This document shows positions 1,351 to 61,835 of a stretch of DNA of 64,000 bases, piece after piece. The stretch comes from Scenedesmus sp. PABB004. Its lineage: Eukaryota. The notes beneath the pieces were generated by a model, which searched no databases, had not been told where the DNA came from, and saw only the letters and a list, made by a program, of their open reading frames with translations. The stretch's first letter is position 1; each line of letters begins with the position of its first letter. The stretch lies in the NCBI GenBank assembly GCA_014905635.1, contig CM026548.1, positions 1,302,001-1,366,000 on the forward strand, in the 5' to 3' direction. The translations under genes were made by a program, and so were the position numbers.

Positions 1351-1735
1351 GCAACGCCCCTCTGCTGGCGCTGGCCGCCGCTCCCGCCGCCGCACCGCCG
1401 CCGCGCTCGGCTTGTTGCTGCTCCGGCGCGCGAGGCAGGCGATCGGGCGGGCGCGGGGCCCGCGGTTCACGCTGCGGCGCGCACAGCCTCCACCCGGCCG
1501 CCCTGGGCCTCCACTGCCACACACGCGCCCTCCAGGCCAGGGCTCAGCTGCAGCACGCAGCCGCGCGAGCGCGCCGCCGAGCCCGCCGCCGCCGCTGCTG
1601 CGCCGTGCGCCACGATCCGGCGCACATCGCCCCGCGGCGCCCGTGTGGGCCCGGTGTCTTCAACTACCCGCCCAGGCAGCCGCCGCGCCGGCCCAGCGCC
1701 CTCAGGCGCCGCGGCAGCGCCGACAGCAGCGCCCG
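1351..1735 (+). repeat. ~400-bp direct repeat, 5' flank of LRR cassette copy 1
   Basis: gcaacgcccctctgc...cccgcggttcacgc...cagcacgcagccgcgcgagcgc...cgcacatcgccccgcggcgcccgtgtggg...cccagcgccctcaggcgccg recurs at ~3979-4381, ~35793-36172 (rc), ~38480-38868 (rc) and ~59060-59478. Confidence 0.9.
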
Positions 1736-1744
1736 CGCGCCGCC

Positions 1745-3701
1745 ATGCGCACCCGGCGCGCCGCGCAGCGCGAGGCCGCCCAGGGTGCGTGGCTGGGAGG
1801 GGCGTGCGTGGCAGTGTCGGGCCTGCCTGAGGCGGTGGCCCGCGGCAGGCAGGCAGCCCCCGCAGGCCCACACGCCCGGCGCGCGCCCCACGCCGCCGCC
1901 CGCTGCTGCGCCGCCCGCCAGGCGCGGTGGTGGCTGCGGCGGTGGCTGCGGCCGCGACCCTGCACGACGCCTGGTCGCTTCTGCTGGCGCACCCGGCGGT
2001 GTGCGAGGACGTGGGCGTGGTGGCCAAGCTGCTCGCGACCAGCCGCGCCACGCGCGCCGCGGGTGCGGGCGTGCGGCTGGCGCGAGCGCGGCGGCGGCGC
2101 GGCAGGCGGCAGCTGCCGGCGTGGGTGCTGACTCGCGGTGCTTGGCGCGGCCAGCGCGCTCAGTCGCTGCCGCTGACGTGCCCGCCGCCGTTGCCGCCGC
2201 CGCATCGCGTGCAGTCGACACGCAGTGCTGGGGCCTGCGCATTGGGTGGCACCACGCCAGGGCCGCGTCGTTCGCCGACTGCTGGCTGCCGCGCCACGCG
2301 CACATCCTCGCCGCGCTGGACATCGGGTTCCGCCCAAACACGGCGGCTGTGGCAGCCGCGCTGCGCACGGCGGCGGCGGTGCGGCCCCTGCGGCTGCACG
2401 GGTTCAGCTTACATGATCACGCAGCCCCTGCGGCGGCGCTGCTGCGGGAGCTGCCCGCCAGCCTCACGTCGCTGGGGATTGTGCTGGACGAGGGCAGAAA
2501 CGCCTCGCACCTGCCGCGCCTGGCGGCGGCGCTGTCGCGCCTGACGGCCCTGCGCACGCTGCACCTGAGTGACGAGGCCATGCCCATGGGCAAGGAGGTG
2601 CAGCGCCTGCTGCCGGCGCTGGCGGGCCACCGCCAGCTCACATCGCTGTATGTCGACACCCAGGACGGCCTGGGCGCCCTGCCGGCGAGCCTGGTGGAGC
2701 TGGAGTTGGCCGACGGCTTTGCTCACAAGACCCCTGACCCCAAGTTCGACCTGCACCACCTCACAGCGCTGACCAGACTCACCTACATCGCGGGTGTGGG
2801 CGACGCGCTGCCGCCCAGCCTGGAGGCGCTGGAGGTGGTGGCGATCATGGACGTGGGGCCCCTGCTGGCGCTCAGCCGGCTGCGCGAGCTGCGCCTGCCT
2901 TATGCCCGCGACGTGCCTGCGCTCGAGCTGGGCCGGCTCACGGCCCTGGCGCGCCTCAGCAGCGTGGCTCTGGACTACACACAGACGTGGTACGAAGGCG
3001 CGCTCGATATCAGCGAGGCACTGCTCGCGGCGGCGCGGGTGTGGCCGCGGCTGCCGCTGGTGGGCCTTAGCGCCCCCCTGGTGAGCGCCCTGCTGCCGCA
3101 CCTGTTGCAGCTGCGCGGCCTCACCATGCTCGAGCTCCTGGGCACTGCAGAGGAGGGGGAGCTGCCGAGCGCGGCCGAGCTGGCTGCGGCGCTCGGCCAG
3201 CTGACGGCGCTGCGCACGCTCAACTTGCGCGGCATCCTCGTGCCGCCCCTCGCCCAGGCGGCGGCATCGCTGGCGCCCGTGACGGCGGCGCTGTCGCGGC
3301 TGCCCAGCCTGGACAGCTTCGGGCTCTTTGGCAGCCCTGGCGTGTTTGACGTGGCGGCCGCCGAGGCGTTTGCGCCGCCGGCGACCACCAAGCTTTGCTT
3401 CGAGTGCTGCCGCATCGACGACGCCGCGCTGTGCGCTGTGGCGAACCGACTGCCCGGCCTGATGTCCCTGAGTGTTTACGACGATGACAGCGCGCTGACC
3501 GGGGCCACCCTGCCGGTGCTGTGCGAGCGGCTGACGCAGCTCACGTGCCTGACCCTCCCGGCGCCGGCAGTCACGCTGGCCAACGCGCACTGCCTGAGCG
3601 CCCTCGTGCGGCTCAGGGAGCTGTACGTGTACAAGCTGGCATGGGACGAGCTCCAGGCGGTGCGCCAGGCGGTGCGAAAGGGCTTCGTGGAGGTGCATTG
3701 A
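1745..3701 (+). CDS. LRR (RNI-like) protein with degenerate F-box-like N-terminal motif, copy 1; exons ~1745-1784, 1922-2062, 2215-3701
   Basis: MRTRRAAQREAAQG|AVVAAA...TLHDAWSLLLAHPAVCEDVGVVAKLLATSRATRAA|VDTQCWGL... followed by many LxxLxxLxxLxL repeats. The phase-compatible GT-AG introns are conserved in all three copies. Confidence 0.8.
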
Positions 3702-3978
3702 GCCCTGACAGCGGCCGGCGTGTGCCTGCCGGGGCGGCGCGGCGCTCCTGGGCGGCGGCTTTGGCGCGCCCGGCGGCGGCGCTGCCGCCGCCAGGCGGCC
3801 GGGGCAGCTCGGCGCTCGGCTGGGTGGCTGCGCGGGGCATGTGCGTGGCTGCGGCGGCGAGCTGAGTTGAGATGGGCGCGGCACCGTGCGTGCTGCGCGC
3901 GCGTGCGGGGGCGGCGGGCGCGCGCTGGCCGGCTGGTCGCGGGCTGCGGCGGGTGCCGGCGGCGCGCGTGCCCCTGCT

Positions 3979-4381
3979 GCAACGCCCCTCTGCTGCTGCG
4001 CTGGCCGCCGCTGCCGCTCCCGCCCCCGCACCGCCGCCGCGCACGGCTTGTTGCTGCTCCGGCGCGCGAGGCAGGCGGGCGGGCGGGCGCGGGGCCCGCG
4101 GTTCACGCAGCGCCCGGTGGCGTCGCGCACAGCCTCCGCCCGGCCGCCCGTGGGCCTCCCCTGCCACATACGCACACGACCTCCAGGCCCGGACGGCAGC
4201 CGCAGCACGCAGCCGCGCGAGCGCACCGCCGAGCCCGCCGCTGCTGCTGTGCCGCTCGCCGCGATCGAACGCACATCGCCCCGCGGCGCCCGTGTGGGAC
4301 CCGCGACGCCACCGACCCTCACAGCCAGCCGCCGCGCCGACCCAGCGCCCTCAGGCGCCGTGGCAGCGCCGGCAGCAGCGC
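3979..4381 (+). repeat. ~400-bp direct repeat, 3' flank of LRR cassette copy 1; directly upstream of ATG16
   Basis: Colinear similarity to 1351-1735, seen directly in the sequence. Confidence 0.9.
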
Positions 4382-4457
4382 GCTGCTGCCAGCTGCGCCT
4401 CGCCCGCGGCAGCGCCGCCCGGCCAGCCGGCAGCGCCTTGGGTGAGCGCCTGCTGAC

Positions 4458-7400
4458 ATGATGGCGGTGGAGTGCCCGCAGGAGCTCCAGGCGGACGTGT
4501 GGCGCCAGGTGGCCGCGCTGCGGGCGGCGCAGACAGCGCCGTACGAAACGCTCGTCGCCGACTACATGGCCTGCCTGCAGCGCAACAGGGAGCTGGAGGT
4601 GCGAGCCCGGGGCGCGCGCGGCCGCCTCACGGCCCAGCGGGCGGCCGCGCCCGCGGCGCGCCCGCGCGGCGCCCGTGCGGCGCGCGCCTGGCAGCTGACG
4701 CGCGAGCTGCTGCCGGCCGGGCGGCCGGCCGGCCGGCGTGCCGCCAGGTGCGGGTCGGCGTGCTCGACAAGGAGGTGGCCGAGCTGCGCGACGAGGCCGG
4801 CTCGCTGCAGCACCGCCTCGCGGCGTTTGACGAGGCCGCGGTGCGCGACTTTGCGGCAAAGGTGCGCCCGCCGCTGCGCCCGCCCGCGCCCGCTGCTGGC
4901 GCTGCTGGTGCCGCTGCCGCTGCCGCGGCGGCCGTCGCTGCCCGGGCGAGCCCCGTCCCTCTGTGCGCCGCCCGCCGCCGCCGCGCCAGGCCGAGAGCTA
5001 CCGGGCAGACCTGGCGCGTGCCAACAGCGAGCTCACCAGCCTGCTGCGCGACAAGTCCAAGGCGCGCTCGCCCGGCCAGCGCCCCGCCGCGCGCGCCGGC
5101 TGGGCGCGCCGCGTGCGCCGCCGGCCACACAAGCGCGCGCCCGCGCCCGCGCCGCCGCCGCCAGGCGTACGAGGAGCTGCTGGCCCTGCAGCGCACCGTG
5201 GCCGCGCTCAGCGCGTCGCAGGCCGAGGCCGCCGAGGCCGCGGAGCTGGCCGAGGGCGAGATCGGCGGGCTGAAGGCCCGCCTCGCCGAGCTGAGCCAGG
5301 AGCTCGACGCCGAGCGCCAGGCGCGCCAGCTGGCGGCGGCCGAGGCTGAGGCGCGGTGCGCCGCGGCGGCCCGGCGCGCGCGCGGGGCGGCTCCCGCCGC
5401 GCGCGCGGCGGCCGCGCGGCGCGGCGCGCTGACGCCGCCGCCGCCTCTGCCGCCGCCGCCGCGCCCGCGCCCGCAGCGTGGCGGCCAAGGTCGCGGCCGA
5501 GGCCGAGTCGGAGCGGCTGCGCGCCGACAACCTGCAGATGGAGGGGCAGCTGCGGCAGATGGTGGCCAAGGAGGTGCGGCGGGCCGCCGCTCGCGCGGCG
5601 CGGCGGAGCGCGGGGCGCGCGCCGGGCGGCCGCGGGGCGCGGCCACGCGCCCGGCCGCGCCGCCGCCGCTGCGTTGGGTGCTCGCAGGCGGAGCGGCTGG
5701 AGCAGATCAGTCGCATGCATGAGGAGCTGATGGTCAACACCAAGCGGCAGCAGGTGGGCGGTGGTGGCGGCGGCGGCAGCAGCCCACGGCGCGCGGCCGT
5801 GGCCACGCGGCGCCGCGGCCGACACCGGCCCGCGCGCCGCGCGCCGCAGACTGAGGCGTCCGCGGCGTCGCAGCTGATGGGCCTGCTGACACGCCGCCGC
5901 GGCAGCGCCACCAGCAGCAGCAGCGCCGCGGCGTCCGCCGCGCCCAGCCCGGGCGGCGGCGCGTCGGCGCCGGCGAGCCGCCGCGGCAGCGCGGCCGACG
6001 CGGCCGGCAGCGCCGCGGCGGCGGCGGCCGCGGCGGAGGAGCACGAGCATGCGCAGGAGATGTGGTCGAGCCTCAAGCAGCGCATGGGCCTGCCCGAGCT
6101 GCCGGTGGGCCCGATCAAGGAACGGGAGCTGCCACAGCAGCCGGCCAAGGCCGTGCAGGTCTGCGCAGCGCTTCGCCCGGCGGCGGCACGGCGCCCGCGC
6201 CGCCGCGCGCGCGCGGGCCGCAGCCCGACGGGCCGGCCTGCGCCGCACCACCCGCGCGCCGCCCCGCGCCCCGCGCAGGCGCACGCGGGCGGCGTGTGCA
6301 GCCTGGCCTTCCAGCCGCACGGCCAGCTCGTCGCGAGCTGCGGCATGGACAAGACGGTGCAGAGCTGGTCGCTCACGCACGCGGCGCACGTCAGCACCTA
6401 CCAGGCGCGGCGAGCGGCGCGGCGTCGCGTCGGCGCGCCCCGCCCCGCCCGGCCGCGAAGGCGCGGGGCCCACCCAGGCTCCCCGCCCGCGCCTGGCCGC
6501 GCCGCGCAGGGCATGCAGGGGAGCGTGAACGACGTGGCCTTCAACGCCGACGGCCGGCGGCTGCTGGGCGCGGGCAGCGACAAGCGCTTGCTCGTGTGGA
6601 ACACGCACGGCGGCCAGGCGCGCGCGGCGGCCGAGGCGGGGCGCGCGCGCGCCCGGGCCGGGGGCTCGCCGCGACCCCCGCGCGCGCCGCGCCGCCGCGG
6701 CCGCAGGTCGTGCACACGCTGACGGGGCACGCCAACGCCGTGAGCTGCGTCGCGGCGTCGCCGCTGGACGAGGGCTTGGCCGTGTCGGCGGGCGAGGACC
6801 GCTGCCTCAAGGCGCGCCGCAGGGTTCAGGCCGCGCGGCGCAGGGTTTAGCCCGCGCGTGCCGCGCCAAGCCACGCCACGCCACGAGCACGCCGGGCGCC
6901 GCGGCGCCGCGCTCGACCGTCTGACGCCGCCGCCGCCGCCGCAGGTGTGGGACCTCGTGCGCGGCTACGCGAGCCGCAGCATCCCCTGCACCAAGATGCC
7001 GACCGCGCTCACGCTCAGCGCCGACGGCAGCACCATCATCACAGGTGGGGCGAGCGCGGCGCCTGCGCTCAGCGCGCGGTGCCCGCGCGCTGACGGCCGC
7101 GCCGCGCCCGCCCCACGCACGCAACCCGCGGCCAGGGCACCTCGACGGCACGCTGTGCCTCTGGGACCTGCGGCAGAGCCGCGCGGGCAGCCAGCCGCTG
7201 GCCGAGGTGCGGCGGCGGCAGCGGCGCTGCGCCGCTCGTGCCGCCGAGCGGGACAGCTGCCGAGGCGCGGCCGGCTCCGCCGCCGCCGCCGCCGCCGCCG
7301 CTGCTGCGCAGGTGCGCGACCACGCGCAGGCGGTGCTGTGCGTCACGCCCACGCCAAACGCGGACTGGCTGCTGACCGCGTCGAAGGACAACCAGCTGCG

Positions 7401-7915
7401 GCTGTGGGACTTCCGCCAGCTCGGCACCGTCCAGGCGCGTCGCCGCGCTCCCGCTCGCTCGCTCGCTGCCGCCCCGGGCGCGCCGCGCCGCGTCTGGCCG
7501 CCGCTTGCGCCGCCGGCGCGCGGCGGCGCTGCGACCCCTGCCGCGGCGGCGGCGGCGCTGCAGGTGCTCAAGGCGCCGCACTTCAGCATCGGCCACATCG
7601 GCAGCATGGGGCGCAGCAAGTGCCACGCAGAAATGAGCGCCGACGGGCGCTGGGTCGCGGCGGGCGCGGCGGACGGCCAGGTGCGCGCGCGGCGCGCGTC
7701 GCGCGGCGCGAGGTCGCGGGGCCCCGTGGCGAGCGCGCGCCGCCCGGCCGCAGGTGTTTGTGTGGGAGCTGCGTGGCGCGCCCGGCGCGGCGGCGGGCGC
7801 GCGCGCGCTGCGGCACCACAAGGACGCGGCGGTCGCGGCGGGCTGGAGCGCCGACTGCACGGAGCTCGTGACCGCCGACAAGGCCGGCGGCATCGCCTTC
7901 TGGCGCCTGCAGTGA
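4458..7915 (+). CDS. ATG16: Autophagy protein ATG16 (coiled coil plus C-terminal WD40 repeats), multi-exon
   Basis: N-terminal helix (WRQVAALRAAQTAPYETLVADY), long coiled coil, then WD40 repeats (AHAGGVCSLAF...ASCGMDKTVQSW; LTGHANAVSCV...SAGEDRCLK|VWD; GHLDGTLCLWDLR; LLTASKDNQLRLWD; MSADGRWVAAGAADGQ|VFVWE). Stop TGA at 7913-7915. Confidence 0.8.
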
Positions 7916-8352
7916 CGCGCGCGCCGCGCTCACCGCTGGTAACACCGGCCTGGGCCCGGCAGGCGCCGAGCGCCGCTCGAGGCACCAGCCCAGACCCGCG
8001 GCGGCACCGACTCCTCGTTCGCCGAGAGCGCAGCCGCCCGTTGAGCTGCCGCGACTGCCACCGAGCCCTTTCGCCGAGTGCGTGCATCTTGTGCAGCTCG
8101 CACACAGTGCTGCGGCAACCGCGACCAGCTCGCCACGCCCGCTCGCCCGCGCGCGCCGAGCAGCAGCAGCGGTGCCGCCCGCCGCTCGCCGCCGCCGCAG
8201 CCGGCCCGCCGCCGCAGCCGCCCCGCCGATCCCCGCCGGCAGCATCGCGCGAGCGGCGCCCGATTGCAGCCCGCTCGCCGCCGCCGCCGCGCCGCGCCGC
8301 TGCTGCTGCTGCGGGCGCCGCTGGCTCAACAACGCCGCGCCGCGCCGCCGCG

Positions 8353-11860
<3,508 letters not shown>

Positions 11861-12136
11861 GGCGGCCAGCTGCGCAGGGCGCAGGCGGGCGCGCTGCGGC
11901 CTTGCCTGGTGGTCTCGCGGCCGGTCAAAGTGACGGGTCAATGCCGCCGGGCAGCATTATGCCCGTTCCGCCCCCGCACGCCCGGCCCCGCGATAAATCG
12001 AAAGCAGCAGCGTCCCGTCGCCCCCACCCGCTGGTGTCCGCCCTCTGCCGAGCGACCCGCCTCAGCGCCTTGAGCATTTTCGCGCCGCCGCTGTCGCGAC
12101 ACCGAGCCCGCTGCGCGGTCAAGCGTCCCCTCCACA

Positions 12137-13996
12137 ATGGTGCGTCACCTACTGCTCCTCTTCCTCGCGGCCGCGGCCGCTGCAAGTGCCTCCGCCGCCT
12201 GGACGAGCCTGCAACAGGACTGCGCCGCCGTCGCGCCCGGCGCGGCCTTTGGCGCCGCCGCGCCCGACCTGTGAGCCGCCCCGCGGCTGTACCTGCGCGC
12301 CTTTGGCCCGCCGCGCTGCCCGCCTCGCCGCTGCGCGCGCCGGCGGCGCCGCGCGCCGCGCCGCGCCGCCGGCGCTGCTCCGCGCGCGCCGCGGCACTCA
12401 CCCACCCGCGTGCCGCCCCCCCCCATCTCGCAGGAAAACGGCCATCACCGTGACGACCGCCGACGGCGGCGCCGTGGCCGCGCTCTGCCCCGGCGTGGCG
12501 TACACCGTGCGCGTCAAGTTCCCCGAGCGCCGCAACTTCATCGTCGCCGCCACCGCGGGCGCCTTTTCCGGCGGCGTCGCCACGACGGGGACCTGGTGCA
12601 GCGCCTGTTCTTTTGCCGTCAGTGGGGTGGGGGGCGCCGGCGCCCTCTCTGCCCGCTGGGCGCCCCGCTGACCGCCCCGCTGACCGCCCTGCTGACCGCC
12701 CCGTTGGCCGACCCCGCGCGCTCGCAGCGCCAACCGCTTCATCAGCGCCGTGCCCGCCAGCACCACGGCCGCCACGCTCAGCCTCCCGTGCGGCGCGGCC
12801 GGCACCGTCGACCTGGCCGCGGCCAGCGTGCTATTCAACAAGACGACGTCGGCCGCGTTCAAGAAGGCGCAGCTGCTCGGCCTGCCCGTCGCGCCGCTCG
12901 CCGCCTGCCCGCAGTCCAACTGCCCCGGCGCCGGTGCGCGCGGCGCCGCGCCCCGCGCCGCGCTCCGCCGCTGCGGGCTGCCGCCGCCGCGCGGCCCCGC
13001 CCGCCCCCCGCGCCCGCCCCTCACGCGCGCGCCCCTCGCGCGTGCGCAGGCCTGCGCATCACCACGGGCGTCGCCGCCACGCCCGCCGCCGCGCCCGCCG
13101 CCGCGCCCGCCGACGCGCTGGGCGTGCGCCTGCCCGCGATCCCGGGGCTCAAGCTGCCCGAGGTGCGGCTCAACCTCACCAAGACCCCGTTCAAGGTGCC
13201 CTCGTTCAAGGTCAACCTCACCAAGGTCGCCCTGCCCACCAAGGTCGTGCTCGACCTCAACGTCCCCCAGCTCGAGAGCATGAAGGCCCTGCTGACCGAG
13301 TCGCTGTCGAGCGTCGACGCCGCGGCGGGCCTGCCCGACCTCACTCCCCTCGCGCAGCCCTTTACCGCGCTGCAGAGCCTCGCCGCGAGCATGGGCGTCG
13401 CGGCGCCGATCAACCTCACCGCGGGGCTCGCGTCCGCGCCCGGCGCGGCCCTCGCAGCGGCGGCGGCGACGGTGCAGGGCGTGAGCGCCAAGCTGCTGCG
13501 CAGCGCCAACGTGACCGTCGCGACCAACGGCACCGTGCTGGGCCTGCCCGACAGCCCCGACGAGCTCGTCGCCTTCATGCGCGGCATCGCCGACGAGCTG
13601 CGCGCCAAGACCGCGGGCCTCTTTGGCGCGGGCGCGGGCGCCGACGCCGCCGACGCGCCCGCGGGCGACGCGTCCGCGCGCCGCCTGCTCGCGGCCGACC
13701 CCGTGGCGAGCTACAACGCGCGCAAGATCGTGTCGTTCACGCAGCTCGCGCAGAGCGACTTTTGGGCGGTCATGTACACCGGGTTCAAGACCTCGCGCGC
13801 GGCGATGGCGCTCATGATCGCCGCGCTCAAGGCGCCGGTCAACGGCGTCGTCACGCTCGACAACGTGTCGCTGCTCGACTTTACCTCCAACGTCGCCTCG
13901 CTCGGCGCGGAGCTGAGCGACCTGATGAGCCGCATCACCAAGACCACGTCCGACGCGATCAACCCGCTCAACCTCAAGCCCACGACGACCGGGTGA
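12137..13996 (+). CDS. Secreted protein with Cys-containing Reeler-like N-terminal domain and unknown C-terminal region (4 exons)
   Basis: Signal peptide [48 protein letters not shown]...C|ANRF; RRLL putative processing motif; long final exon with strong codon bias ending KPTTTG*. Confidence 0.6.
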
Positions 13997-38476: not shown

Positions 38477-38479
38477 GGC

Positions 38480-41524: not shown

Positions 41525-41583
<59 letters not shown>

Positions 41584-46525: not shown

Positions 46526-46581
<56 letters not shown>

Positions 46582-48485: not shown

Positions 48486-48527
<42 letters not shown>

Positions 48528-50924: not shown

Positions 50925-53147
50925 ATGGCGCCCGACCCCGTGGAGGGCGTGGGGACCGACGGCCAGCGCGCGCGGCCGCTGCGCCTCTTCTTCAATCGCC
51001 GGTGACCTGCCGCCGCTGCTGGCCGCCGGGGCCCGCGCAGCGCCGCCGCCGACGCGCGCCCGCCGCCGACGCGCCCGCCCGCCCACCCCGCGCCGCAGCA
51101 ACGCGGCGGGCCTGCTCGGCGCGGCGCTCGCGGGCCCGGGGCTCGGGTTTGGCGTGCGCGGCATGGTCGCCGGCTACGCCCTCGCGCGCTGGGCGTACGC
51201 CAAGACCGAGCAGTGAGCGCCCCGCCGCCGCGCGGCCAGCTGCCCCGACCGCGCCGCGCCGAGCCCCCGCCCGCCCGCCGCGGCCAGCTGCCCCCGCCCG
51301 CGCCGCGCCGAGCCCTCGCCCGCCTCTGCGACTCGGCCCGCCGCCGCGGCGAGCCCCCGCCCCGCCCCGCCCCGCCCGCCGCCGGGGCGCAGGTTTGTGC
51401 CCTTCACGCGGCGGCGGCACATCATCCTCATGCCCAGCCTGGCCGAGGCGCTGCTGGGGCAGCACCTGCACGAGCAGTTCCTGCTGGAGCAGGGCAAGAA
51501 GGTCGGGGGGCGCGGGCGGGGGCTGGGCCAACGCGCGGCGCGGCGCTGGGGGCCCGCTGCAGCAGCACGTGGCCGCCCCGGCCGCGCGCGCGCGCCGCCG
51601 CCGCCGCCCGACCCGCGCGCTGCACGCCCCGCTGCCCCGGCGCAGGGCACGCTGCTGGACGCGTCGCACCCCGACACCACGCTCGTGGTGGGCGTGGCGA
51701 AGCGCCTGATCGCCGTGCTGGGCGAGGGCCACGGCGGGGGCTACCAGAAGCACCTGCGGAACTTCAAGTGAGTCAGGCACACCACGCCACGCGCGGCCGC
51801 GCGCGCGCCGCGGCGCCCGCCGCCCGCAGCGGGCCGGGCGGGCTGGCCCGGCCAGCAGCGCCGCCGCGCAGCCCCGCGGCGCGGCGCGCGGCTGGGCCTC
51901 CCCTGCCCGCGGGGCTGAACCTCTTGCGGCGGCGGCGGCGTGCCCGCGCGCGCGCAGGTGGAGCGTGAGCGTCGTCCGCGAGCCGATCATGAACGCGTTT
52001 GTCTTCCCAGGTGACACCCCCCTGCGCGCGCGCGCCTGCGGTGCGCCCGTGCACCACGTGCACGCCCTGCGCGGCACGCGCGCGCGCGCGCGGCGCCCCT
52101 GGGAGCTCGCCGCACGCTCTCAGCGCTGCCGCCCCGGACCCCGCCGTGCCGTCCCTGCCCCCACCGCCTGACCCCCGCCGGTCCGCCAGGCGGCTACATC
52201 GTCGTTTACACAGGCGCGTGACCGCGGCGGCGGCGGGGGCTCGGCCGAGGGCGGGGCGCTGCGCGCTGCGCGCTGCGCGCGCTCGGCGCGCGTCGAGCCC
52301 CGACGCGCGCGCGGCCGCCCGCGCCGCCGCGCCGGCCTCGCAGGCCTGCTGCAGCTGCTGCGGCGCGACCCGGACCTGCTCGCGATGGTGATGGGGCACG
52401 AGGTCGCGCACGCGCTCGCGCGGCACAACACGGAAAAGGTGTGTGGGCGCGGCCGGCGCGGCGGCGGGCCCTGCCGCCGACGCCGTGGCGGCGACAGGGG
52501 GCTCGGCGGCAGGGCCGGGACGCGGCAAGGGCGGCTGGCGGCCCTGCGCCTCTGCGCCGCGGACGCGAGCGGCGCCGCCGCCCGGTGCCGCCCGCCGCCG
52601 CCGCTGCCGGCAGATGGGCATGGGCCTGGCGGTGAGCATGGTGCTGCAGATGCTGCTCGCCGCGGCGGGCGCGGGCGGCGACGCGGAGGGCGCGCGCGCG
52701 CGCGCGGCCGAGCTCGAGGCGGAGCGGGCGCGGCGAGGCTACCACCGCACGCACTCGCGGCTCGTCGCGGACGAGGGCGGCGACGGCGGCGGCGAGCCGG
52801 GGCGCGGCGGCGCCGGTGGCGCGGGCGCGCCGTGGGGCGCCGCCGCCGCCGCCGCGGGCGGGCGCTACCCGTCCGTTCCTCCGCCAGGCGTGCCTCCCAT
52901 CCAGTACCGGCAGGCGCCGCCGGCGCGCGGCCGCGGCGGCGGCGGCGGCGGCGCGCCGCCGCCGGACGTGCCGCCGCTGCCGCCGTGGATGAGCGAGCAG
53001 CTGCTGCGCAGCCTGAGCAGCGTGCTGCTGGAGCTGCCGTTCAGCCGGCGCGCCGAAACTGAAGCGGATTTGATCGGCCTTAAGCTCATGTCCCTCGCGG
53101 GCTTTGACGCGGCCAAGGGGCCCGAGGCCTTCCGCCTGCTTGCGAGT

Positions 53148-53235
<88 letters not shown>

Positions 53236-53621
53236 GCGGGCCGCGGGCGGCGCCGGGGAGGGGCGGGGAGGCGGGCGGCCGCGTCCCGCGCGCGCGCCGA
53301 CGCGCCGCCGCGCTCGGGCGGCGCCCGCCGCAGGCGTGTCGGGCGACGCGCGCAAGGGCGGCGCGGAGTCGCTGCTCGCCGGCCTGGGGTGAGCGCGCGC
53401 CGGCGCGCGCGCGGCCGACCGCCGCGCCGCCTCCCCGCCGCGCTCGCGCGCGCGCCGCGCCCCTCACGCGCGCCCCCCGCCGCGACAGCTGCACGCACCC
53501 GGACTCCACGCGCCGCGCGGCGCGGCTGGAGGAGGAGCTTGCGTTCATGGCCGCGCACCGCAGCGACGCGCGGCTCGGCCTCGAGTCGGTGCACAGCCGG
53601 GTGGACTACTTCTCCGTCTGA
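50925..53621 (+). CDS. OMA1: Peptidase M48, OMA1-like zinc metalloprotease
   Basis: VPFTRRRHII; WSVSVVREPIMNAFVFPG|GYIVVYTG|LL; LAMVMGHEVAHALARH (HExxH); LPFSRRAETEADLIGL; THPDS. Confidence 0.88.
53148..53235. repeat. (GCG)n microsatellite, probably intronic, in the OMA1-like gene
   Basis: ~29 GCG units starting right after a gt donor-like site. Confidence 0.9.
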
Positions 53622-54466
53622 CCCTGCCCGGGGTCTGACGCTGCCCGAGGCTGGCGAGGCTGGCGCGAGAGGGATTTGCGAGCGGGTTGCGCGCGGCGGC
53701 GTCGTTGCAACAACATCGCCGCCGCCACACACGCGTCGTCGCCACACGCGCCAGGAAAGGTGTGATGAATTTGCCGGGCCCGCGTGCCTCCAGATGTGGC
53801 CAGGAGCGCACCAGCCGTGTCCCGCGTCTGCCTCGCCCAGAGCCGCCGCCGCGCCGGCGCTCGTCCTCGCGGCAACGCCGTCGTCGCCACGCCGCGCCAC
53901 CTTCAAATGCTGTGGCCGCACACGCCCGTCGCCGCGCACGCACGCACGCACGCACCGCGCCGTCATCCAGGTCAGCCGGTCAGCCGGTCAGGGGGGACGC
54001 ATAACCCGTGAGGCAAGAGGAGACGACACACTGCAAAAGCGACGACGCGCGCGGTGGTGCCCCCCACGCCCTGGCCTACACAAGCGAGACATTGCACACC
54101 CTGCTGATGGAGAGCCAGGCGCCTGCTCAGCGCCGTCGCGATCAGTCAGTCGGTCAGTCACCGGCCCGCGCCGGCCCGGGCGGAGCGCCGCCCGGGGCGG
54201 CGCGCGCGCCGCAATGGCGAGAGCGCCGCGCACAGATCCCCGGTGTGTGTTGTACAACCGCGCGGCAGCCGGCCGCGCGGACAAGGCAAAGGGGGGCCCG
54301 CTGGCCGGCAGAGGCCCCCCCCCCCCGCAAACAAACGCGCACAATGCCGATCACACCACCACCACCACCAGCACCAGCACCGCCGGCCGGCATGCGTCGC
54401 GGCTGCGGCGGCGCGCGGTCAATTCGGGGCGGGCGCGCGCCGCACGCAGTGCGCGCCGCGCCGCGC

Positions 54467-56755
54467 TCAGTGGCCCGTGAAGGCCGAGGCGTGGCCGTCG
54501 AGGGTGAGCGCGACGAAGCTCAGCGCGAGGCAGAGGCTGTAGGCGAGGCCGAGGCTGCTGCTGCGCGCGCGCGCGAGCGCGGCGCGGCGCGCGGTCGCCT
54601 TGGCGCCCTTGCCCAGGATGCGCTCAGCCTCGGGCGCGTAGGTCGGCGCGCCGGCGGCGTCAAAGAACCGCCCCAGCCGCGCGGGCGCGGTCAGCAGGCG
54701 CAGCAGCGCGCTCGCGGGCGTCAGGTACCTGCGGCGCGGGGTGGGCCGGTGCGGGCGAGCCGGCGCGCGGTGGGCAGGCGGCGTGGCGCGGCGCGGCGAC
54801 GCCCGCGGGCGGGCGGCCGGGCGGGCGGCCCGGCCGCGAGCGCGCGCCGCCGCACCGTGTGTATGTGCCGTTGAGGCCGCACGCGACCGCGGCGCGGCAG
54901 CGCGGCACGAGGAACGCGGCGACAGTCTCGGGATGCTCGCAAAGGATGTTGAACGCCTGCGAACGCGCAGCAGGCGCAGCGGCGGGCGCGGGGCGGGTGA
55001 GGTCTCCCGCAGCGCACGCGCCGGCAACGCTGGAGCCGGCCTCCGGCCCCGGCCGGCCCTGGGCGCGCGCGCGCGCGCGTGCGGCCGCGCCGCGCGCCTG
55101 CTTGTTGGCGGTCGTCGCGCCCTCGAGCAGCAGCTCCGTCAGCATCATGCCCGGCGACAGCACGTGCACGCCGACCGCGCTGCCCGCGAGCTCCGCGCGC
55201 AGGCTGGCCGCGAGCTGCGGGAACGCGGCCTTGGTCGCGCCTGCGGCGACGCGCGGCGCGGCGCAGCGCTGGGCGGCGCGCGGCGGGCGCCGCGCGCGGC
55301 GGGCGCCACGCGGCGGCACGGCGGGCGCCGCCGCGCGGGGGCAGCGTCGCTCCCGCGGCGCCGGCGCCGCCGTCGCGGCGCACCGTAGGCGGCGTACTGC
55401 GGCGTCGCGTTGCCGTCGGCGCCGGCGCCGTCCATGATGAACACGTGGCCCCCCAGCGCCTGGCGCAGCTGCGGCGGCGGGGAGGCAGGCACCAGGGGCA
55501 GCGCGGGGCGGCAGCGTCAGGGAGCCGCGCAGGCAGCGCGGGCGCAGGTGCGACGTGACAGGCGCGCGGCGGGCACGCGGCGGCGGCGCGGCGGCGCGCA
55601 CCATGAGGCGTCCCGCCGCGCGCGCGCAGAGCAGCGTGCCCAGCAGGTTGGTCCGCACGACCGCGCCGAGCGCGGCGGGGTCGGAGGCCAGGAACGGCCG
55701 GAACGCGCCGGAGTAGCCTGGCCCGCGGCGCAGCACGGGCGGGGGGCGGGGGCACGCGCAGGCAGTCAGGCGGCAGTGGCGGCGCGGCGGTGGCGGGGCA
55801 GCGCGGCGGGCGGTGCGCACCCGCGTTGGCGACCCACACATCCACGCTGCCGAGCAGCGCCTCCGCCGACGCCGCGAGCGCATCGACCTGCGCGGCGTCG
55901 CTGACGTCGCACACGACGCCGTGCAGGCGCGGCGGCGCCGCGACGCCGAGGCCGGCGAGCTCAGCGCGCAGCGCCGTGAGCGCGGCGTCGAGCGAGGCGC
56001 GCGTGCGGCCGGTTATGACCACGGCGTCGCTGTGGGCGAGGAACTCGCGCGCGAGCGCCTTGCCGAGGCCCTTGGTGCCGCCTGCGCGCGCGCGCGGCGC
56101 GGACGCGCAGCATGCGGGCGGCGCTCGCAGGACGGGCGGCGGGCGCGCGAGCGACGCGGGGGGCACGTGCGCGGGCGGTGTGCCCTTCGCGCCAAGGGCC
56201 TCGGCAAACACGCGGTCGCGCACCGGTGATGACGACGTTGAGCGGCGCGTGCGGCGGGCGCCAGAGGCGCGCGCTGCAGTAGCGGTTGAGCGCCGCAAAC
56301 ACGCCGCCGATCGCCGCGCCCGTCAGCGCGGGCAGCCACACGGGGCCAGGCACGCCTGCGGGTGCGGGCACGGGCGTGCGCGGGGCGCGGGGCGTGCTGA
56401 GGCTGGGGCAGGGCCGCGGGCGGCGCGGCGCCGGCGCGCGGCGCGACGCAGCGCAGGCACGGCGCCCCGCACCCGCGACGCTGCTGGCCGTGCCCAGCAC
56501 GTAGGCGCCAAAGGCGACCAGGCCCAGCGGCTTGTGCGGCTCGGCCTCGTAGACGACGCTGCGGCGCGCCGCGATGGCGCGCCGCGCGGCGGGCAGCGGC
56601 GCGACGCCGCCGCCGCCGCCGCCGCCCCGCCGGGCCGTCGATGCCTGAGGCCGCGCGACCGCGCGCGTAACGAGCCGCTGGCGGCCCAGGCAAGCGGCGG
56701 CGCGCTCGGGCACGCGCGCCGCGCGCTGCGGGGCGCGGGAGTGGGCGCCGCGCAT
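54467..56755 (-). CDS. NYC1: Chlorophyll(ide) b reductase, NYC1-type SDR with hydrophobic segments
   Basis: Transit-like N-terminus; LNVVITG|GTKGLGKALAREFL; VDVWVANAG; TNLLGTLLC; GHVFIMDGAGADGNATPQYAAYG|ATK (YxxxK); SPGMMLTELLL; FNILCEHPETVA. N- and C-terminal hydrophobic stretches favour NYC1 over NOL. Confidence 0.88.
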
Positions 56756-57190
56756 TTCGCTGCCTCCTCCCTAACGCCCGCGCGCGCTGCGGATCCGGCG
56801 AGCGCTGCTGGGGCGCTCCGGGATCGAAAGCAGCGTCCACGAAGAGCGCTTGACCCCCAGGCGCCCCAGGGAGCGTTGGGAGGGCCCGGCCGCTGGCGCG
56901 CGCGCGGCAACAAAGCTCGTCCGCTGGCGAGAACGGGCCGCTGCGCGCGCGGCGGTGTGGCTCGATCGGGCAGAGGGCACAACACTGCGCCCCGCATGAC
57001 GCGGCGCGGGGCGTCGCCGCCGAGCTGGCGCCACAACCGCGCGCCCGCCGCCGCGCCCCACATGCTCCCCCGCGGCCACCGTCTCCCGGTCCAACGCACG
57101 CCACCCGGCCGGCCGCACGCTCCCCCGCAGCACACACGCACGCACGCGCGCGCGCGCGCCCACGCCAGCGGCTCGCCCCGCGCCCGCGCC

Positions 57191-57871
57191 ATGCAGGCGC
57201 CGCGCCTGGCGGCGGCGCCGCCGCGCCGGGCGGGCCTGACGGCCCTGGCGGCCGCGACCCCGCCGCCGTGCGGGCCGCGCACCGCCGCCGGCCGGCGCCG
57301 CGCGGCCGGCAGCAGCAGCGGCGCCGGCGGCGCGCGCCCGCGGCCGCGCTCGCGCCGCCGCGCGCTGCCCGCCGAGCGCGCCGGCGGCGCGGCGCCCGGC
57401 CGGCGCGGCGGCCCGCCCGGCGCCGCCGATGTGCAGGGCTGGCGCAGCGCCGTGCCAGGGTGCGCGCCGCGCCCCGCGCGCGTCGCCCGCTCCTCGCCGC
57501 CCGCCACGCGCGCGCTGACGCGGCCCGGCGCCTGCCGCCGCGCGCGCGCCCGCGCAGCGACAGCGGGTGGGACCCCCTGAAGCTGCGCGCGCGCGACGCC
57601 AAGACCTTCAACCGCTTCCGGTGCGCCGCCGCGGGCGCGCGCCGCGGCCGCCGCCCACGCCCGGCGCTCCGCTGCACGGCGCGCGCACGCCGCCCGCACG
57701 CGTCGCCGCCGCGCGCCCACGCCGCCCGCACGCGCCGCCGCCGGGCAGGGAGGTGGAGGTCATCCACGCGCGCTGGGCAATGCTGGGCGTGATGGCGCTG
57801 CTGCTCGGCGACGCGCCGGGCACGCCCGTCTCGCCGCAGACGGTGCGCGCCCGCGCCCGCGCCCGCGCCCT

Positions 57872-57917
<46 letters not shown>

Positions 57918-58749
57918 TTTCCGTGCGCGAGCCCACCCCACCGCGCCGCGCCGCGCGACGCCGCGCCGCGCCGCGCTGGCGCAGCTGAGCGTCGGCGTGC
58001 TCGCGCCGTGGGGCCTCACCGCGCTGCTGGGCGTCGCGTTCATTGAGAGCTCCCGCCTCGCCGCGCTGTGGGGCGAGGACGACGTCGACGCGCGCGCATA
58101 CCCGGGTGCGCCGTGTGCCCGAGCGGCCGCCTGCGCCGCGCCTGCACGGCGCCCCCGCCGCCGCGCCTGCGCCGAGCCCGTGCTCCGTGCCTGCGCCGAG
58201 CCCCCGCCGCCGCGCCGTGCCTGCTGAGCCCCGCCGCCGCGCCGCAACGCCGCCGCGCAGGCCAGCGCTTCGACCCGCTCGGCCTCGCCCGCCGCGCGCG
58301 CCGCGGCCGCCGCGCCGGCAGCGCCGCGGGCGAGGGCGACGCGCCGCCGCCGCTCGCGGTGTTTTCGAGCTGGCTCGGCGGCGCACCGGGCTGGCTCGCG
58401 GGCGGGTGGTGGTGGGAGCGGCGGGAGATGACGGAGGGCGAGCTCCTTGACATGAAGAGCCGGGAGCTGCGCAACGGCCGGCTCGCGATGTGCGCGCGGC
58501 GCGCCCGCCGCGCGCGCCGGCCTGCGCCGAGGCCCCGCCGCCGCGCCGGCCCGCGCCGGCCCGCGACTGCCCGCGCCGGCCGGCCCGGGTCCGCGCGCGC
58601 CGAGCCGCCCGCGCCGCGCGCGCAGGGTGTCGTTCCTGGGCTGCTGCGCGGCGTCGGCGCTGACCGGCAAGGGCCCCATCACGCTGCTGGTGCAGCACAT
58701 CACCGACCCCGCGCACAACACGATCGTGCAGAGCCTCGGCCAGCAGTGA
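57191..58749 (+). CDS. Divergent light-harvesting chlorophyll a/b-binding (LHC) family protein (6 exons)
   Basis: PG|DSGWDPLKL; FR|EVEVIHARWAMLG; FIESSR; YPG|QRFDPLGL; KSRELRNGRLAM|VSFLG; TGKGPITLLVQHITDPAHNTI. Confidence 0.9.
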
Positions 58750-59059
58750 GGCGGCGCGGCAGCGCAGCGCGGCGCGGCGCGTCGGCGGCGAGCGGGGCGG
58801 CGGGCGGGCCGCCGCCCCGCGGCGAGAGGGGAGGCTTTGGGAGCGCGCGTGGAGAGCGGGGGCGCGGGGATCGGGGGCGAGGGGCAGGCGATGCGCTGCG
58901 ACACGTGCATGCGTGACCATCTGTGTGCTCTGCGTGCGTGCGGCGTGTGTATTCACTTCTCTGTACAACACCGTGGGGGCTCAAACGCCTCGGGCGGCCG
59001 GCTGCGAGTTGAGCGCGCGTCGACCGAAGTTGTGCGAAGCGCCTCTGGGGCGGCAGGTC

Positions 59060-59478
59060 GGCGGCGGCGCGCGCGCCTGCTGCAATGTCCCTATGCTGCG
59101 CTGGCCGCCGCCTCTCCTGCCGCCGCACCGCCGCCGCGCTCGGCTTGTCGCTGCACCGGCGCACGGCAGGCGGGCGGGCGCGGGGCCCGCGGTTCGCGCT
59201 GCGGCCGGCGGCAGCGCACAGCCTCCACCCGGGCCGCCCGTGGGCCTCCCCTGCCACGCACGCACACCGCCTGCAGGCCCGGACGGCAGTCGCAGCACGC
59301 AGCCGCACGAGCGCGCCCGAGCCCGCCGCCGCTGCTGCGCCGCTCACCGCGATTAAACGCATCGCCCCGTGGCGCCCGTGTGGTCCCTGCGACACCGCAG
59401 ACCCGCCCAGGCAGCCGCCGCGCCGGCCCAGCGCCCGCGCGCGCCACGGCATCGCCGACAGCAGCGCCCGCGCGCCGC
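59060..59478 (+). repeat. ~400-bp repeat, 5' flank of LRR cassette copy 3
   Basis: Colinear with the other flank copies. Confidence 0.9.
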
Positions 59479-59479
59479 C

Positions 59480-61454
59480 ATGCGCACCGGGGGCGCCGCG
59501 CAGCGCGAGGCCGCCCAGGGTGCGGCTGGGAGGGCGTGCGTGGCAGCGGCGTCAGTGCCTGGGCCCGCGGCAGGCAGGCAGCCCCCGCAGGCCCACTCGC
59601 CCGTCGCGCGCCCCACCCCGCCCGCTGCTGCTGCGCCGCCGCCCGGCAGGCGCGGCGGTGGCTGCGGCGGGGACCCTGCACGATGCCTGGTCGCTGCTGC
59701 TGGCGCACCCGGCGGTGTGCCAGGACGTGGGCGTGGTGGCCAAGCTGCTCGCGACCAGCCGCGCCACGCGCGACGCGGGTGCGAGCGGCGGCGCCAGCGG
59801 GCGCGGCGGCGGCGGCGGCGCGGCAGCTGTCAGCGCGGGCGCTGACTCGCGGTGCTTGGCGCGGCCAGCGCGCTTGACGGCTGCCCCTGACGTCCCCGCC
59901 GCCGCCTTTGCCGCCACCGCCGTTGCTGCCGCCGCGTCGCGCTCAGTCGACACGCAGTGCTGGGGGCTGCGCGTTGATGGCGAGTGCGCCGACCTCGAGG
60001 CAGAGCCGTTCACCGACTGCTGGCTACCGCGCCACGCGCACATCCTCGCCGCGCTGGACGTCTGGTACCACCAGACGTGGCGGCTGTGGCAGCCGCGCTG
60101 CGCACGGCGGCGACCGCGCGGCCCCTGCGGCTGCAGGAGTTTGCCTGCCGCGCCCAGCTGGGCCCTGCGGCGGCGCTGCTGCGGGAGCTGCCCGCCAGCC
60201 GCCTCACGTCCCTGGGGCTTTACCTGCACGCGGGCTGGGCTGTCTCGCACCTGCCGCGCCTGGCGGCGGCGCTGTCGCGCCTGACGGCCCTGCGCTCGCT
60301 GAATGTGTTTCTGGAGGACGAGGGCGCCGGGGCGCACCGCCTGCTGCCGGCGCTGGCGGGCCACCGCCAGCTCACGCGGCTGGCGCTCAACACCCAGAAC
60401 GGCCTGAGCGCCCTGCCGGCGAGCCTGGTGCACCTGGCAGCGATTGGCAACGTGCGGGACCCGCTGCCATACGCCGGCCGGGACCTGCGCCACCTCACGG
60501 CGCTGACCGGACTCACCTACACCGCTGGCGCGGGCGACGCGCTGCCGCCCAACCTGGAGGAGCCTGGAGGCGCTGGACGTGAAGTGTATCGACAACACGG
60601 AGCCCCTGCTGGCGCTCAGCCGGCTGCGCGAGCTGCGCCTGCCGCACGCCCGCCGGGTGTCTGCGCTCGAGCTGGGCCGCCTCACGGCCCTGGCGCGCCT
60701 CAGCAGCGTGGAGCTGGACTACACGCATGTGGACAGGGCCACGCTGGTCAACACTGACGAGGAGCTGCTCGCGGCGGCGCCGGTGTGGCCGCGGCTGCCG
60801 CTGGTGTGCCTGCGCGGCGTCCGGTTGGCGCGTCCCATGCTGCCGCACCTGTCGCAGCTGCGCGGCCTCACCATGCTCAAGCTCCTGGGCGCTGCAGAGG
60901 AGGGAGGGCTGCCGAGCGCGGCCGAGCTTGGCGCGGCGCTCGGCCAGCTGACGGCGCTGCGCGAGCTTGATTTGCTTGGCATCCGCCTCGCGCCGCCGCC
61001 CCTCGCTGCGGACGGCGCGCCCCAGCCGGCGGCGTCGCTGGCGCTGGTGACGGCGGCGCTGTCGCGGCTGCCCAGCCTGTGCCGCTTTGCGCTCTTTGGC
61101 AGCCCTGGCGTGTTTGAGGCGTTTGCGCCGCCGGCGACCACTTGTCTTTGCTTCGAGGAATGCAGCATCGACGACGCCGCGCTGTATGCTGTGGCGCAGC
61201 GCCTGACCGGCCTGATGTCCCTGCATATTGTGGACGAGGACAGCCCGCTGACCGGTGCCGCCCTGCCGGTGCTGTGCGAGCGCCTGACGCAGCTCACGTG
61301 CCTGACCCTCCCGGCGCCGGCAGTCACACTGGCCAACGCGCACTGCCTGAGCGCCCTGGTGCGGCTCAGGCAGCTTTGGGGGTGCGTGCTGCCAGAGGCG
61401 GAGCTCCAGGCGGTGCGCCAGGCGGTGTGCAGCGGGTGCTGCATGGTTGCGTGA
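59480..61454 (+). pseudogene. F-box-like/LRR gene copy 3 with two frameshifts (~60070 and ~60563)
   Basis: Same 3-exon layout. The homologous peptide is split over three ORF-track entries (59085-60284, 59984-60757, 60579-61454). Confidence 0.75.
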
Positions 61455-61835
61455 CCCCTGCCAGCGGCCTGAGTGCGCTGCAGGGCCGTCGCCGCCCCCC
61501 CCCCCCCCCCCCCGGCTGCGCCGGCGCAGCTGCGGGGCGGTGGCTTGGCGCGGCTGGCGGCGGCACTGTCGCCGCGAGGCGGCCGCGGCAGCTCGGCGCT
61601 CGGCTGGGTGGCTGCGCGAGGCACGTGTGTGTGGCTGCGGCGGCGAGTTGAGTTGGGCGCGCCCGCGTGCGTGCTGCGTGTGCGTGCGAGGGCGGCGGGC
61701 GGCGGGCGCGCGCTGGCCGGCTGGTCGCGGGCTGCGGTGGGGGCCGGCGGCGCGTGCCCCTGCTGCAACGCCCCTCTGCTGCTGCGCTGGCCGCCGCCGC
61801 CGCCGCCGCGGCACAGCCGCCGCCGCGCGCTCGGC
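61455..61835 (+). repeat. 3' flank of cassette copy 3: shared 3' spacer plus only the first ~80 bp of the direct repeat
   Basis: Matches 3702-~4050 (gcagctcggcgctcggctgggtggctgc, gagttgag, gcgcgctggccggctggtcgcgggctgcgg, ctgctgcaacgcccctctgctgctgcgctggccgccg), then diverges. Confidence 0.85.

Follow-up and report, generated by a model that had tools for sequence, protein, structure and literature searches.

Three copies of an intron-containing leucine-rich repeat gene between direct repeats in a green-alga-like genome, and their possible origin from a tandem array split by inversions

Gene families of the leucine-rich repeat (LRR) type, such as the plant nucleotide-binding LRR (NLR), receptor-like and F-box-LRR families, form clusters by tandem and 'proximal' duplication through unequal crossing-over, accompanied by gene conversion and diversifying selection. 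The gene-carrying transposons include the Pack-MULEs, the Helitron gene captures, and the large retrotransposon derivative (LARD) and terminal-repeat retrotransposon in miniature (TRIM) elements. Elements with long terminal repeats (LTRs) are copied through RNA and have repeats ending in TG...CA, a target site duplication of 4-6 bp, a primer-binding site after the 5′ LTR and a polypurine tract before the 3′ LTR. DNA transposons and Pack-MULEs with terminal inverted repeats make target site duplications of fixed length. The ends of Helitrons are 5′-TC and 3′-CTRR, with a hairpin near the 3′ end, and autonomous copies have a Rep/helicase gene. DIRS/PAT-like and Crypton elements encode a tyrosine recombinase, together with a reverse transcriptase in DIRS, and have split or inverted terminal repeats and an internal complementary region. 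The subject of the present analysis is a 64,000-nucleotide stretch of Scenedesmus sp. PABB004 (contig CM026548.1, positions 1,302,001 to 1,366,000), referred to as the window, in which an intron-containing LRR gene is found between direct repeats at three separate places.

Two further described systems are close to this arrangement. In Drosophila, 17 of 29 fixed inversions have inverted duplications at their breakpoints, ranging from 46 bp to ~1.9 kb with a median of 321 bp, and breakpoint regions are reused, according to the available sections of Ranz et al. 2007 (PMC1885836). Satellites of Drosophila and Tribolium are described, in the available sections of two other papers, as entering gene-rich DNA in the form of short arrays via extrachromosomal circles (10.1101/846238, PMC11610590). 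Within the excerpts returned by a literature search for a described algal system of this kind, there were general amplification papers only.

A BLASTN comparison of positions 800-5200 with the window finds three copies of a ~3-kb cassette, ~80% identical to one another. The first copy (c1) spans 1351..4399 on the plus strand, the second (c2) 35764..38868 on the minus strand and the third (c3) 59050..61835 on the plus strand, with an approximate 3′ end. A sequence-only reading of the same DNA had placed three copies at these sites and on these strands, and BLASTN confirms it. Positions 1361-4399 of c1 align with 38868-35764 of c2 (minus strand) at 80.8% identity over 3175 columns, and 1351-4040 of c1 with 59082-61823 of c3 at 80.2% over 2825 columns (both BLASTN). 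No fourth cassette copy was found inside the 64-kb window, either with a motif of the repeat or with tblastn of the LRR exons, which returned three loci only. The window is eukaryotic and green-alga-like, with a chlorophyll a/b-binding gene and spliced public gene models, and its G+C content is 75-83% throughout.

The cassette contains a ~0.4-kb direct repeat, termed R upstream of the LRR gene and R′ downstream of it, ~250-280 bp past the stop. In c1, R (1351..1732, +) ends 13 bp before the LRR ATG at 1745, and R′ (3946..4381, +) ends 77 bp before the ATG of the next gene. Within this R′, 3979-4381 matches the R of c1 itself (1351-1732; 84.2% over 406 columns, BLASTN), and 3946-3978 is matched solely by the longer 5′ R of c3; the whole of 3946-4381 aligns with c3 59050-59467 at 83.3% (BLASTN). 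The repeats of c2 are located at 38486-38868 (5′ R) and 35793-36171 (R′), both on the minus strand. The 5′ R of c3 (59050-59467, +) has 33 bp more of the preceding unit's tail than that of c1, and the R′ of c3 is an incomplete remnant (~61732 to ~61835, +) in which homology to the repeat stops at 61823-61835. The earlier description of a ~400-bp flank repeated directly ~280 bp past the stop, complete in two copies and truncated in the third, stands: the stop of c1 is at 3699-3701, its R′ starts at 3946-3979, and the repeat is complete in c1 and c2 and partial in c3. R and R′ are 85% identical. A 23-nt core motif of R occurs five times, in the cassettes only (two in c1, two in c2, one in c3), against a chance expectation of 0.03, and five occurrences were reached in 0 of 100 shuffles. 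The same search found no solo R in the 64-kb window.

Head to tail, the unit has a period of 2628 bp (1351 = 3979). Both c1 and c2 cover 1.16 of this 2.63-kb unit and c3 covers ~1.04, in agreement with the suggestion of the sequence-only reading that the copies are ~1.1-unit pieces of a tandem array. The period is constant and the pieces are circular permutations of one unit, as in a tandem array; no intact array is left in the window. The orientation of the copies is + - +, and c1/c2 and c2/c3 are inverted pairs bounding two unique segments. The first, S1 (4400..35763), lies between c1 (+) and c2 (-) and extends from a coiled-coil/WD40 gene (+) to an FAD synthase gene (-). The second, S2 (38869..59049), lies between c2 (-) and c3 (+) and extends from a Kazal gene (-) to a light-harvesting complex (LHC) gene (+). 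Both segments are putatively inverted. Copies in + - + order at the ends of two unique segments are the layout of inversions flanked by inverted duplicates.

The reading favoured here, held at about an even chance, is that a short tandem array was built by unequal crossing-over between R repeats and was split by two inversions with staggered breaks in the repeats. From the arrangement of the copies we infer the array, the two inversions, their order, and a promoter role of R′. The founder locus would have been situated between the LHC gene and the WD40 gene, with the LRR gene between direct ~0.44-kb copies, R and R′, and with R′ a short distance before the next gene. Through unequal crossing-over of R with R′, the locus could have grown into an array of two or perhaps three R-gene units, with the LHC gene before it and a final R′ leading into the WD40 gene.

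In each inversion, an inter-unit R would have taken a staggered break, with the second break falling in an unrelated spacer between genes. In the inversion of S2 (38869-59049), one R would have been split into the 5′ R of c2 (from repeat position +43) and the remnant in c3 (to ~+90-135). The second break would have fallen between the Kazal gene and its Kazal-trypsin neighbour, leaving c2 and c3 as they are now placed. The inversion of S1 (4400-35763) would have had its second break between a DUF829 gene and the FAD synthase gene, bringing c1 beside DUF829 and the R′ of c2 before FAD synthase; the break may have fallen in the following inter-unit R, or an entire 3-kb unit may have been duplicated at the breakpoint. 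Because the breaks would lie within inter-unit R, each piece would comprise one unit plus part of the next repeat, and would take on the appearance of a gene between R and R′. This single scenario would reproduce all six junctions and the extents of homology with no extra event, including the longest 5′ end in c3 and the ancestral 3′ flank in c1. The extent of the c1-c3 homology, 1351-4040, agrees with its prediction.

Each cassette is co-oriented with both of its neighbours. The order is DUF829 gene (+), c1 and the coiled-coil/WD40 gene (+, ATG at 4458), which is presumably ATG16-like, a label taken from the sequence-only reading. The second copy follows a three-domain Kazal gene and precedes FAD synthase (ATG at 35718), all on the minus strand, and c3 is found between the LHC gene (stop at 58747) and a Kazal-like/trypsin gene (ATG at 62654). 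The flanking genes had been described as unrelated. This holds except for the 5′ neighbour of c2 and the 3′ neighbour of c3, which are both of the Kazal type.

The three-domain Kazal gene (39154..40586, -) has its domains at 40343-40200 (d1), 39797-39654 (d2) and 39441-39292 (d3), and its 3′ end is 286 bp from the 5′ boundary of c2. The Kazal-like and trypsin gene (62654..64000, +) runs off the window, contains a Kazal-like exon (kt) at 62816-62953, and has its 5′ end ~830 bp from the 3′ boundary of c3. Kazal-like sequence in the window is confined to these two genes, which adjoin the 5′ boundary of c2 and the 3′ boundary of c3. Alignment scores are 89 (d1-d2), 97 (d2-d3) and 99 (d3-kt) for neighbours and 67 (d1-d3), 70 (d2-kt) and 53 (d1-kt) for non-neighbours, and similarity declines with the presumed ancestral distance along a chain d1-d2-d3-kt. 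The kt exon, at 20.1 bits against the Pfam Kazal_1 cut-off of 21, is a degenerate fourth Kazal with one cysteine lost, located 22 kb away on the opposite strand at the start of a trypsin-like protease gene. Re-inversion of 38869-59049 makes the 3′ end of the Kazal gene adjoin the 5′ end of the Kazal-trypsin gene, in the same direction. Among the six copy flanks, tblastx gave nothing at E <= 1e-6, and the Kazal link is visible only in a targeted tblastn. A search for second small duplications at the other breakpoints gave noise matches of 10-19 bp only.

The repeats at the ends of S2 also have features in common. An exact 22-mer with a derived 5-nt insertion in the 5′ R of c2 (38808..38829, -) has its sole other site in the R′ remnant of c3 (61814-61835, +). 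Of the 13 columns that divide the six R sequences two against four, over ~64-85 overlapping columns, 9 unite the start of the c2 5′ R with the c3 remnant, this insertion among them. Such sharing would be expected of two overlapping halves of one broken repeat. Together with the Kazal chain, these characters lend indirect support to S2 being inverted. A variant with a tandem triple, in which the 5′ R of c1 and the R′ of c2 would be sister halves, was rejected as it has no support from the repeat sequences. These two are the least similar repeat pair (81.3%) and have no 'cross' substitutions in common.

The junctions can also be explained without an array, by a single-copy R-gene-R′ ancestor in which two staggered-break inversions each duplicated the whole ~3-kb unit, inverted, at their ends. 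The + - + layout and the junction extents fit this origin, with c3 longest at the 5′ side and c1 and c2 longest at the 3′ side, and the mechanism is a known one in the sections of PMC1885836 referred to above. It would also be in keeping with the homology of c1 and c2 in the 18 bp just beyond R′, where 15 of 18 bases are identical (p ~0.02), which is weakly above chance. However, a single-copy ancestor predicts that the 5′ R of c2 is sister to the 5′ R of c3, and its derived characters are instead common to the c3 R′ remnant. The 5′ edges of the copies lie at repeat positions +0 (c3), +33 (c1) and +43 (c2), with the R of c2 beginning ~10 bp later than that of c1, and two independent nicks 10 bp apart (+33, +43) would be needed. 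Two fill-ins of ~3 kb would be above the Drosophila maximum of ~1.9 kb given in the same sections of PMC1885836. This origin is considered unlikely.

An array split by inversions has much in common with the staggered-break inversions of the Drosophila melanogaster group, as those sections describe them. In both, a unique segment lies between inverted copies of a gene-bearing sequence that is not repetitive, a single region provides breakpoints for several inversions, one of the duplicates is decaying (here c3), and the duplicates are ~80-88% identical. Unlike in Drosophila, the broken sequence here was probably already a tandem repeat, so that the pieces look like a gene between direct repeats; the host is a very GC-rich green-alga-like eukaryote, and the inversions are deduced rather than shown. 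If this reading is true, the locus is a clear non-animal example of a tandem cluster turned into dispersed cassette-like paralogues by local rearrangement. It would also caution against taking a multi-copy gene flanked by direct repeats as a sign of mobility in itself.

The relationships among the copies bear on a further alternative. The three copies are almost equidistant, with 182, 162 and 158 of 502 informative sites backing the three pairings. The pairing signal is mosaic along the sequence, and the observed heterogeneity was reached in 0 of 5000 permutations. A mosaic, near-star pattern would be expected of an array homogenised by unequal exchange. In the tree of the R sequences, the two repeats of c1 are placed together (ultrafast bootstrap, UFBoot, 94) and the topology by position is rejected (approximately unbiased (AU) test, p = 0.023). 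Sites in R group the repeats by copy through 10 substitutions and one indel, versus two substitutions by position. For an array split by inversions, the grouping by copy is read as concerted evolution within each locus.

The same grouping would suit a DNA-level mobile R-gene-R′ unit copied to new sites, with any inversion between c2 and c3 occurring later by recombination between already inverted copies. This is regarded as possible, though clearly the less probable of the two. The routes could be a re-inserted circle or rolling-circle product of the R-gene unit, copy-in at break repair, or a non-autonomous element mobilised in trans. Each copy has its outer limits within ~45 bp of the ends of R, and the two repeats of c1 are mutual closest relatives. 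The copies and the R/R′ pairs are of similar age, judging from the synonymous divergence (dS, 0.18), the R-R′ identity and the near-star sites. Recombination between inverted copies would also explain the characters shared by the c2 5′ R and the c3 R′. The introns and the non-coding parts were copied and have diverged at about the neutral level, which bears out the claim of spread at the DNA level. The locus is like the satellite circles, in the sections of the two papers cited for them (10.1101/846238, PMC11610590), in having about one to a few head-to-tail units at dispersed sites, no target site duplications (TSDs) and a burst-like divergence. It is unlike them in that the unit is a protein gene of 2.6 kb with introns, where theirs are satellites of 100-400 bp, and in that three copies only are seen, all in 64 kb.

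The hallmarks of mobile elements were examined at the copies. TSD-like matches between the flanks reach 7-8 bp at most; in controls the median is 7 and the 95th percentile 10-11. The longest end matches resembling terminal inverted repeats (TIRs) are 6, 6 and 10 bp, where the control 95th percentile is also 10-11; neither kind of match is above chance. There are no TG...CA ends, the repeat edges differ among the copies with no fixed termini, and no conserved TC...CTRR ends of Helitrons are found at these differing edges. By eye, no primer-binding site follows the 5′ repeat, where CCGCGCGCCGCC is followed by the ATG, 13 bp on, and no polypurine tract precedes R′, where the sequence is G+C-rich. 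The repeats of the cassette are simple direct repeats only, with no split or inverted terminal repeats of the DIRS or Crypton type.

Open reading frames (ORFs) of at least 150 aa were scanned in full in a first batch (149 of 149) and as 118 of 137 in a second, with the 19 inside c2 and c3 left out. Those in and around c1, in six frames, match no Pfam family at E <= 0.001. No recombinase, Rep/helicase, reverse transcriptase (RT), transposase, gag, pol or tyrosine recombinase family is present among the scanned ORFs, and the Pfam families found across the window are those of ordinary cellular genes only. A search of the window gave no Rfam family, and the cassettes contain no tRNA. The cassette thus lacks the features tested for LTR elements (LARD/TRIM), TIR elements and Pack-MULEs, Helitrons and tyrosine-recombinase elements. 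The sequence-only reading had seen no element proteins, no TG...CA ends, no clear TSD and differing outer boundaries; the ORF scans, the reading of the edges, the TSD matches at control level and the 5′ edge positions agree with it on each point.

A host gene between repeated ends, in several copies, is a likeness to the gene-carrying transposons. The difference is that their defining ends (TIR with TSD, TC...CTRR with hairpin, TG...CA with primer-binding site and polypurine tract) were tested and not found here, and that the gene is complete, with a promoter-like flank and both introns. A LARD- or TRIM-like retroelement, non-autonomous and of the LTR type, with a captured gene and R as its LTR, is close to refuted. 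Direct terminal repeats of ~0.4 kb and the grouping of the c1 repeats by copy would be consistent with it, but both spliceosomal introns are kept in sense orientation, and TG...CA ends, a TGG-type primer-binding site, a polypurine tract before R′, a TSD, and gag or pol in the scanned ORFs are all absent.

Much of this evidence also argues against a DNA-level mobile unit. The TSD- and TIR-like matches are not above chance, the copy termini differ, and neither a solo R nor a fourth copy is present in the 64 kb. None of the scanned ORFs encodes a recombinase, Rep, RT or transposase domain, and no further close paralogue is found among public proteins. Such a unit requires an unknown insertion mechanism as well as an inversion, and leaves the presence of copies at the Kazal split unexplained. 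The proposal of the sequence-only reading that the unit spreads by itself or is mobilised in trans was not borne out, with no solo repeat in the window, no fixed termini and no further close public protein. Its suggestion of an undescribed gene-amplification system found no evidence either; the + - + layout, the Kazal split and the shared repeat characters fit local inversions. If the cassette were mobile, it would represent a new way of amplifying cellular genes.

The search for further copies in public sequence data covered contigs, sequencing runs and proteins. In metagenome contigs, a protein-pattern scan gave 151 pattern matches with none confirmed, and the R motif gave no matches; in viral contigs there were 23 pattern matches, none confirmed. 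Two sequencing runs share sequence words with the cassette (shares 0.10 and 0.05), and no RNA run is listed. The run contigs are ~150-320 bp long and were matched at 80% likeness, which makes them too short for copy counts or for spanning junctions, and contig joints with sides of fewer than 30 letters were disregarded. They include pieces with 0-1 differences, identical or near-identical to c1, which show that the sequenced organism or a close strain is present in the two runs. Contigs resembling c2 (3331-3650) differ from all three copies at 3398 (G), 3483 (C) and 3624 (C). Seven more such 'neither' positions are located in an indel-rich stretch where the alignment is ambiguous. The variants at 3398, 3483 and 3624 may derive from a fourth copy elsewhere in the genome or from a strain allele. 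As a hint of a fourth variant, they count in favour of a mobile unit.

Among public proteins, the LRR protein has no close relative besides P0152 and P0002, two NCBI nr entries encoded by the window itself. Searches by length gave one match at 29% identity in the 'near' range, P0152, P0002 and one match at 34% in the 'longer' range, and none in the 'shorter' range. A representative all-against-all protein search at E <= 1e-30 returned one protein, P0002. Other annotated copies should have surfaced, on the assumption that nr covers the whole proteome of the assembly. The third exon of c2 is intact, with 517 codons, yet has no public-protein counterpart at any length range searched, and c2 seems to be unannotated. 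As c2 is not represented, the copy count from public proteins is a lower bound.

The two public models are wrong fusions of neighbouring genes. P0152 (2522 aa; window 1-12000) runs from DUF829 through the c1 LRR gene and the coiled-coil/WD40 gene into at least one further gene, and P0002 (1279 aa; window 57191-64000) joins LHC to Kazal-trypsin through the c3 LRR gene, whose frameshifts are bypassed by splicing. Fused read-through models arise easily because stop codons are rare at 80% G+C. ORF length was rejected as a sign of function. At this G+C content, the frame 3-3698 (+) is open for 1232 codons, in the course of which it passes the end of a gene, a spacer between genes, the repeat, both introns and the LRR exon.

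Between the complete R′ of c1 or c2 and the start codon that follows it (WD40 gene, 4458; FAD synthase, 35718) there are 46-77 bp, and R′ alone separates these genes from the LRR 3′ region. Because of this proximity, and as nothing else lies in between, R′ probably serves as promoter and leader of the WD40 and FAD synthase genes. In c3, where R′ is a remnant only, the downstream gene has ~830 bp of its own upstream DNA. If the array was split by inversions, a 0.44-kb flank may now drive two unrelated housekeeping-type genes, FAD synthase and the WD40 gene, which would be a case of promoter donation by rearrangement. A mobile form of this idea is rather improbable: an R-bounded cassette that would move at the DNA level via a one-unit circle or rolling circle, and would survive in gene-dense DNA as its spare R′ gives a promoter to the gene it precedes. 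If true, such a cassette would be an intron-containing cellular gene spreading with a portable promoter and without a known transposase.

Several points weigh against a tandem array split by inversions. The inversion of S1 is without independent support, and later conversion within copies must be assumed. Three breaks within the first ~135 bp of R (+33, +43, ~+90-135) need a fragile site, and folding shows no excess structure. The 15 of 18 bases past R′, if real homology, require the inversion of S1 to have duplicated an entire 3-kb unit; no Drosophila case in the available sections of PMC1885836 is as large. The implied ancestral spacer between DUF829 and FAD synthase is only ~90 bp. The derived characters common to the c2 5′ R and the c3 remnant sit in GCC-rich, slippage-prone sequence, and the grouping of repeats by copy is equally predicted by an LTR-like or rolling-circle origin. 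Finally, the run variants unmatched by the three copies may mean that further copies exist.

The LRR gene has three exons and GT-AG introns. In c1 (1745..3701, +) the exons are 1745-1784, 1922-2062 and 2215-3701, with the splicing of the public model P0152. In c2 (38476-36458, -) they are 38476-38437, 38302-38174 and 38010-36458, and in c3 (59480-61454, +) 59480-59519, 59650-59778 and 59947-61454. Both introns are kept in all three copies, as the sequence-only reading had found, and the exon structure equals that of the spliced public models P0152 (c1) and P0002 (c3). Gap runs in the introns are mostly not multiples of three (4 of 9 are). Between c1 and c2, the non-coding parts have 12 of 34 gap runs in multiples of three, and the 11 gap runs of exon 3 represent nine indel events, all nine in frame. 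For exon 3 of c1 and c2, dS is 0.18 and the nonsynonymous divergence (dN) 0.225, a dN/dS of ~1.2, and 343 of 494 amino acids are identical. The in-frame indels and this ratio indicate that the gene of c1 and c2 is frame-conserved yet fast-changing. Relative to c1 and c2, c3 has two frameshifts, one (about -1) near 60070 and one, a duplication of 10 nt, at 60551, and looks like a decayed copy.

Recognition proteins typically show such a dN/dS (~1.2) in an intact frame, which makes the LRR gene of interest in algal biology. The locus is like the plant LRR clusters in its local paralogues, mosaic similarity, this ratio with a kept frame, and one decaying copy. It is unlike them in that the copies are 20-31 kb apart across unrelated genes, with one inverted, and in that the protein is from a little-annotated algal LRR family. 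The stretch of exon 1, intron 1 and exon 2 (c1 1729-2019; c2 38490-38200) is 95-96% identical between c1 and c2, compared with 75-85%, ~80%, in the LRR exon. The high identity may be due to a tract of recent conversion or to strong constraint on the 5′ part, the intron included.

Among named relatives, an uncharacterised protein of Tetradesmus obliquus is nearest to the LRR protein (34% identity). The proteins of the window score below the Pfam thresholds, with LRR_14 at 34.7 bits against a cut-off of 40 in c2 and LRR_4 alone at 12.4 bits in c1. Five of eight distant relatives exceed the LRR_14 cut-off (40.7-61.4 bits), and the family profile matches the LRR proteins TIR1, FBXL17, FLS2 and TLRs (E ~1e-19 to 1e-12). 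The peptide of exon 2 has no Pfam family at E <= 1, and no F-box family was found in any of the eight relatives at E <= 0.01. A conserved N-terminal motif is F-box-like by eye only, and F-box-LRR proteins are among the best solved matches via their LRR part.

At the very end of the c1 R′ there is a perfect 20-nt palindrome, GGCAGCAGCGCGCTGCTGCC (4372-4391). In the c2 counterpart, the first arm is replaced by a complement-like CTGCTGC. Folding at the palindrome is no better than in shuffles (z 0.68 in c1, -1.17 in c2). Hairpin-prone break sites were likewise rejected, as the six boundary stretches fold no better than shuffles (z -1.2 to +2.0).

Elsewhere in the window, ARAGORN calls a 98-nt tRNA-Gly(GCC) at 11370-11467, in GC-rich coding-like sequence where Rfam gives no tRNA at the gathering threshold; the call is probably spurious, or else the gene contains an intron. 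A (GAGCAG)n/(GCA)n tract at 41417-41674 and a (GCG)n tract at 53136-53240 are both probably low-complexity coding or intronic sequence, and a long (GT)n/(GC)n microsatellite is located at 9224-9420.

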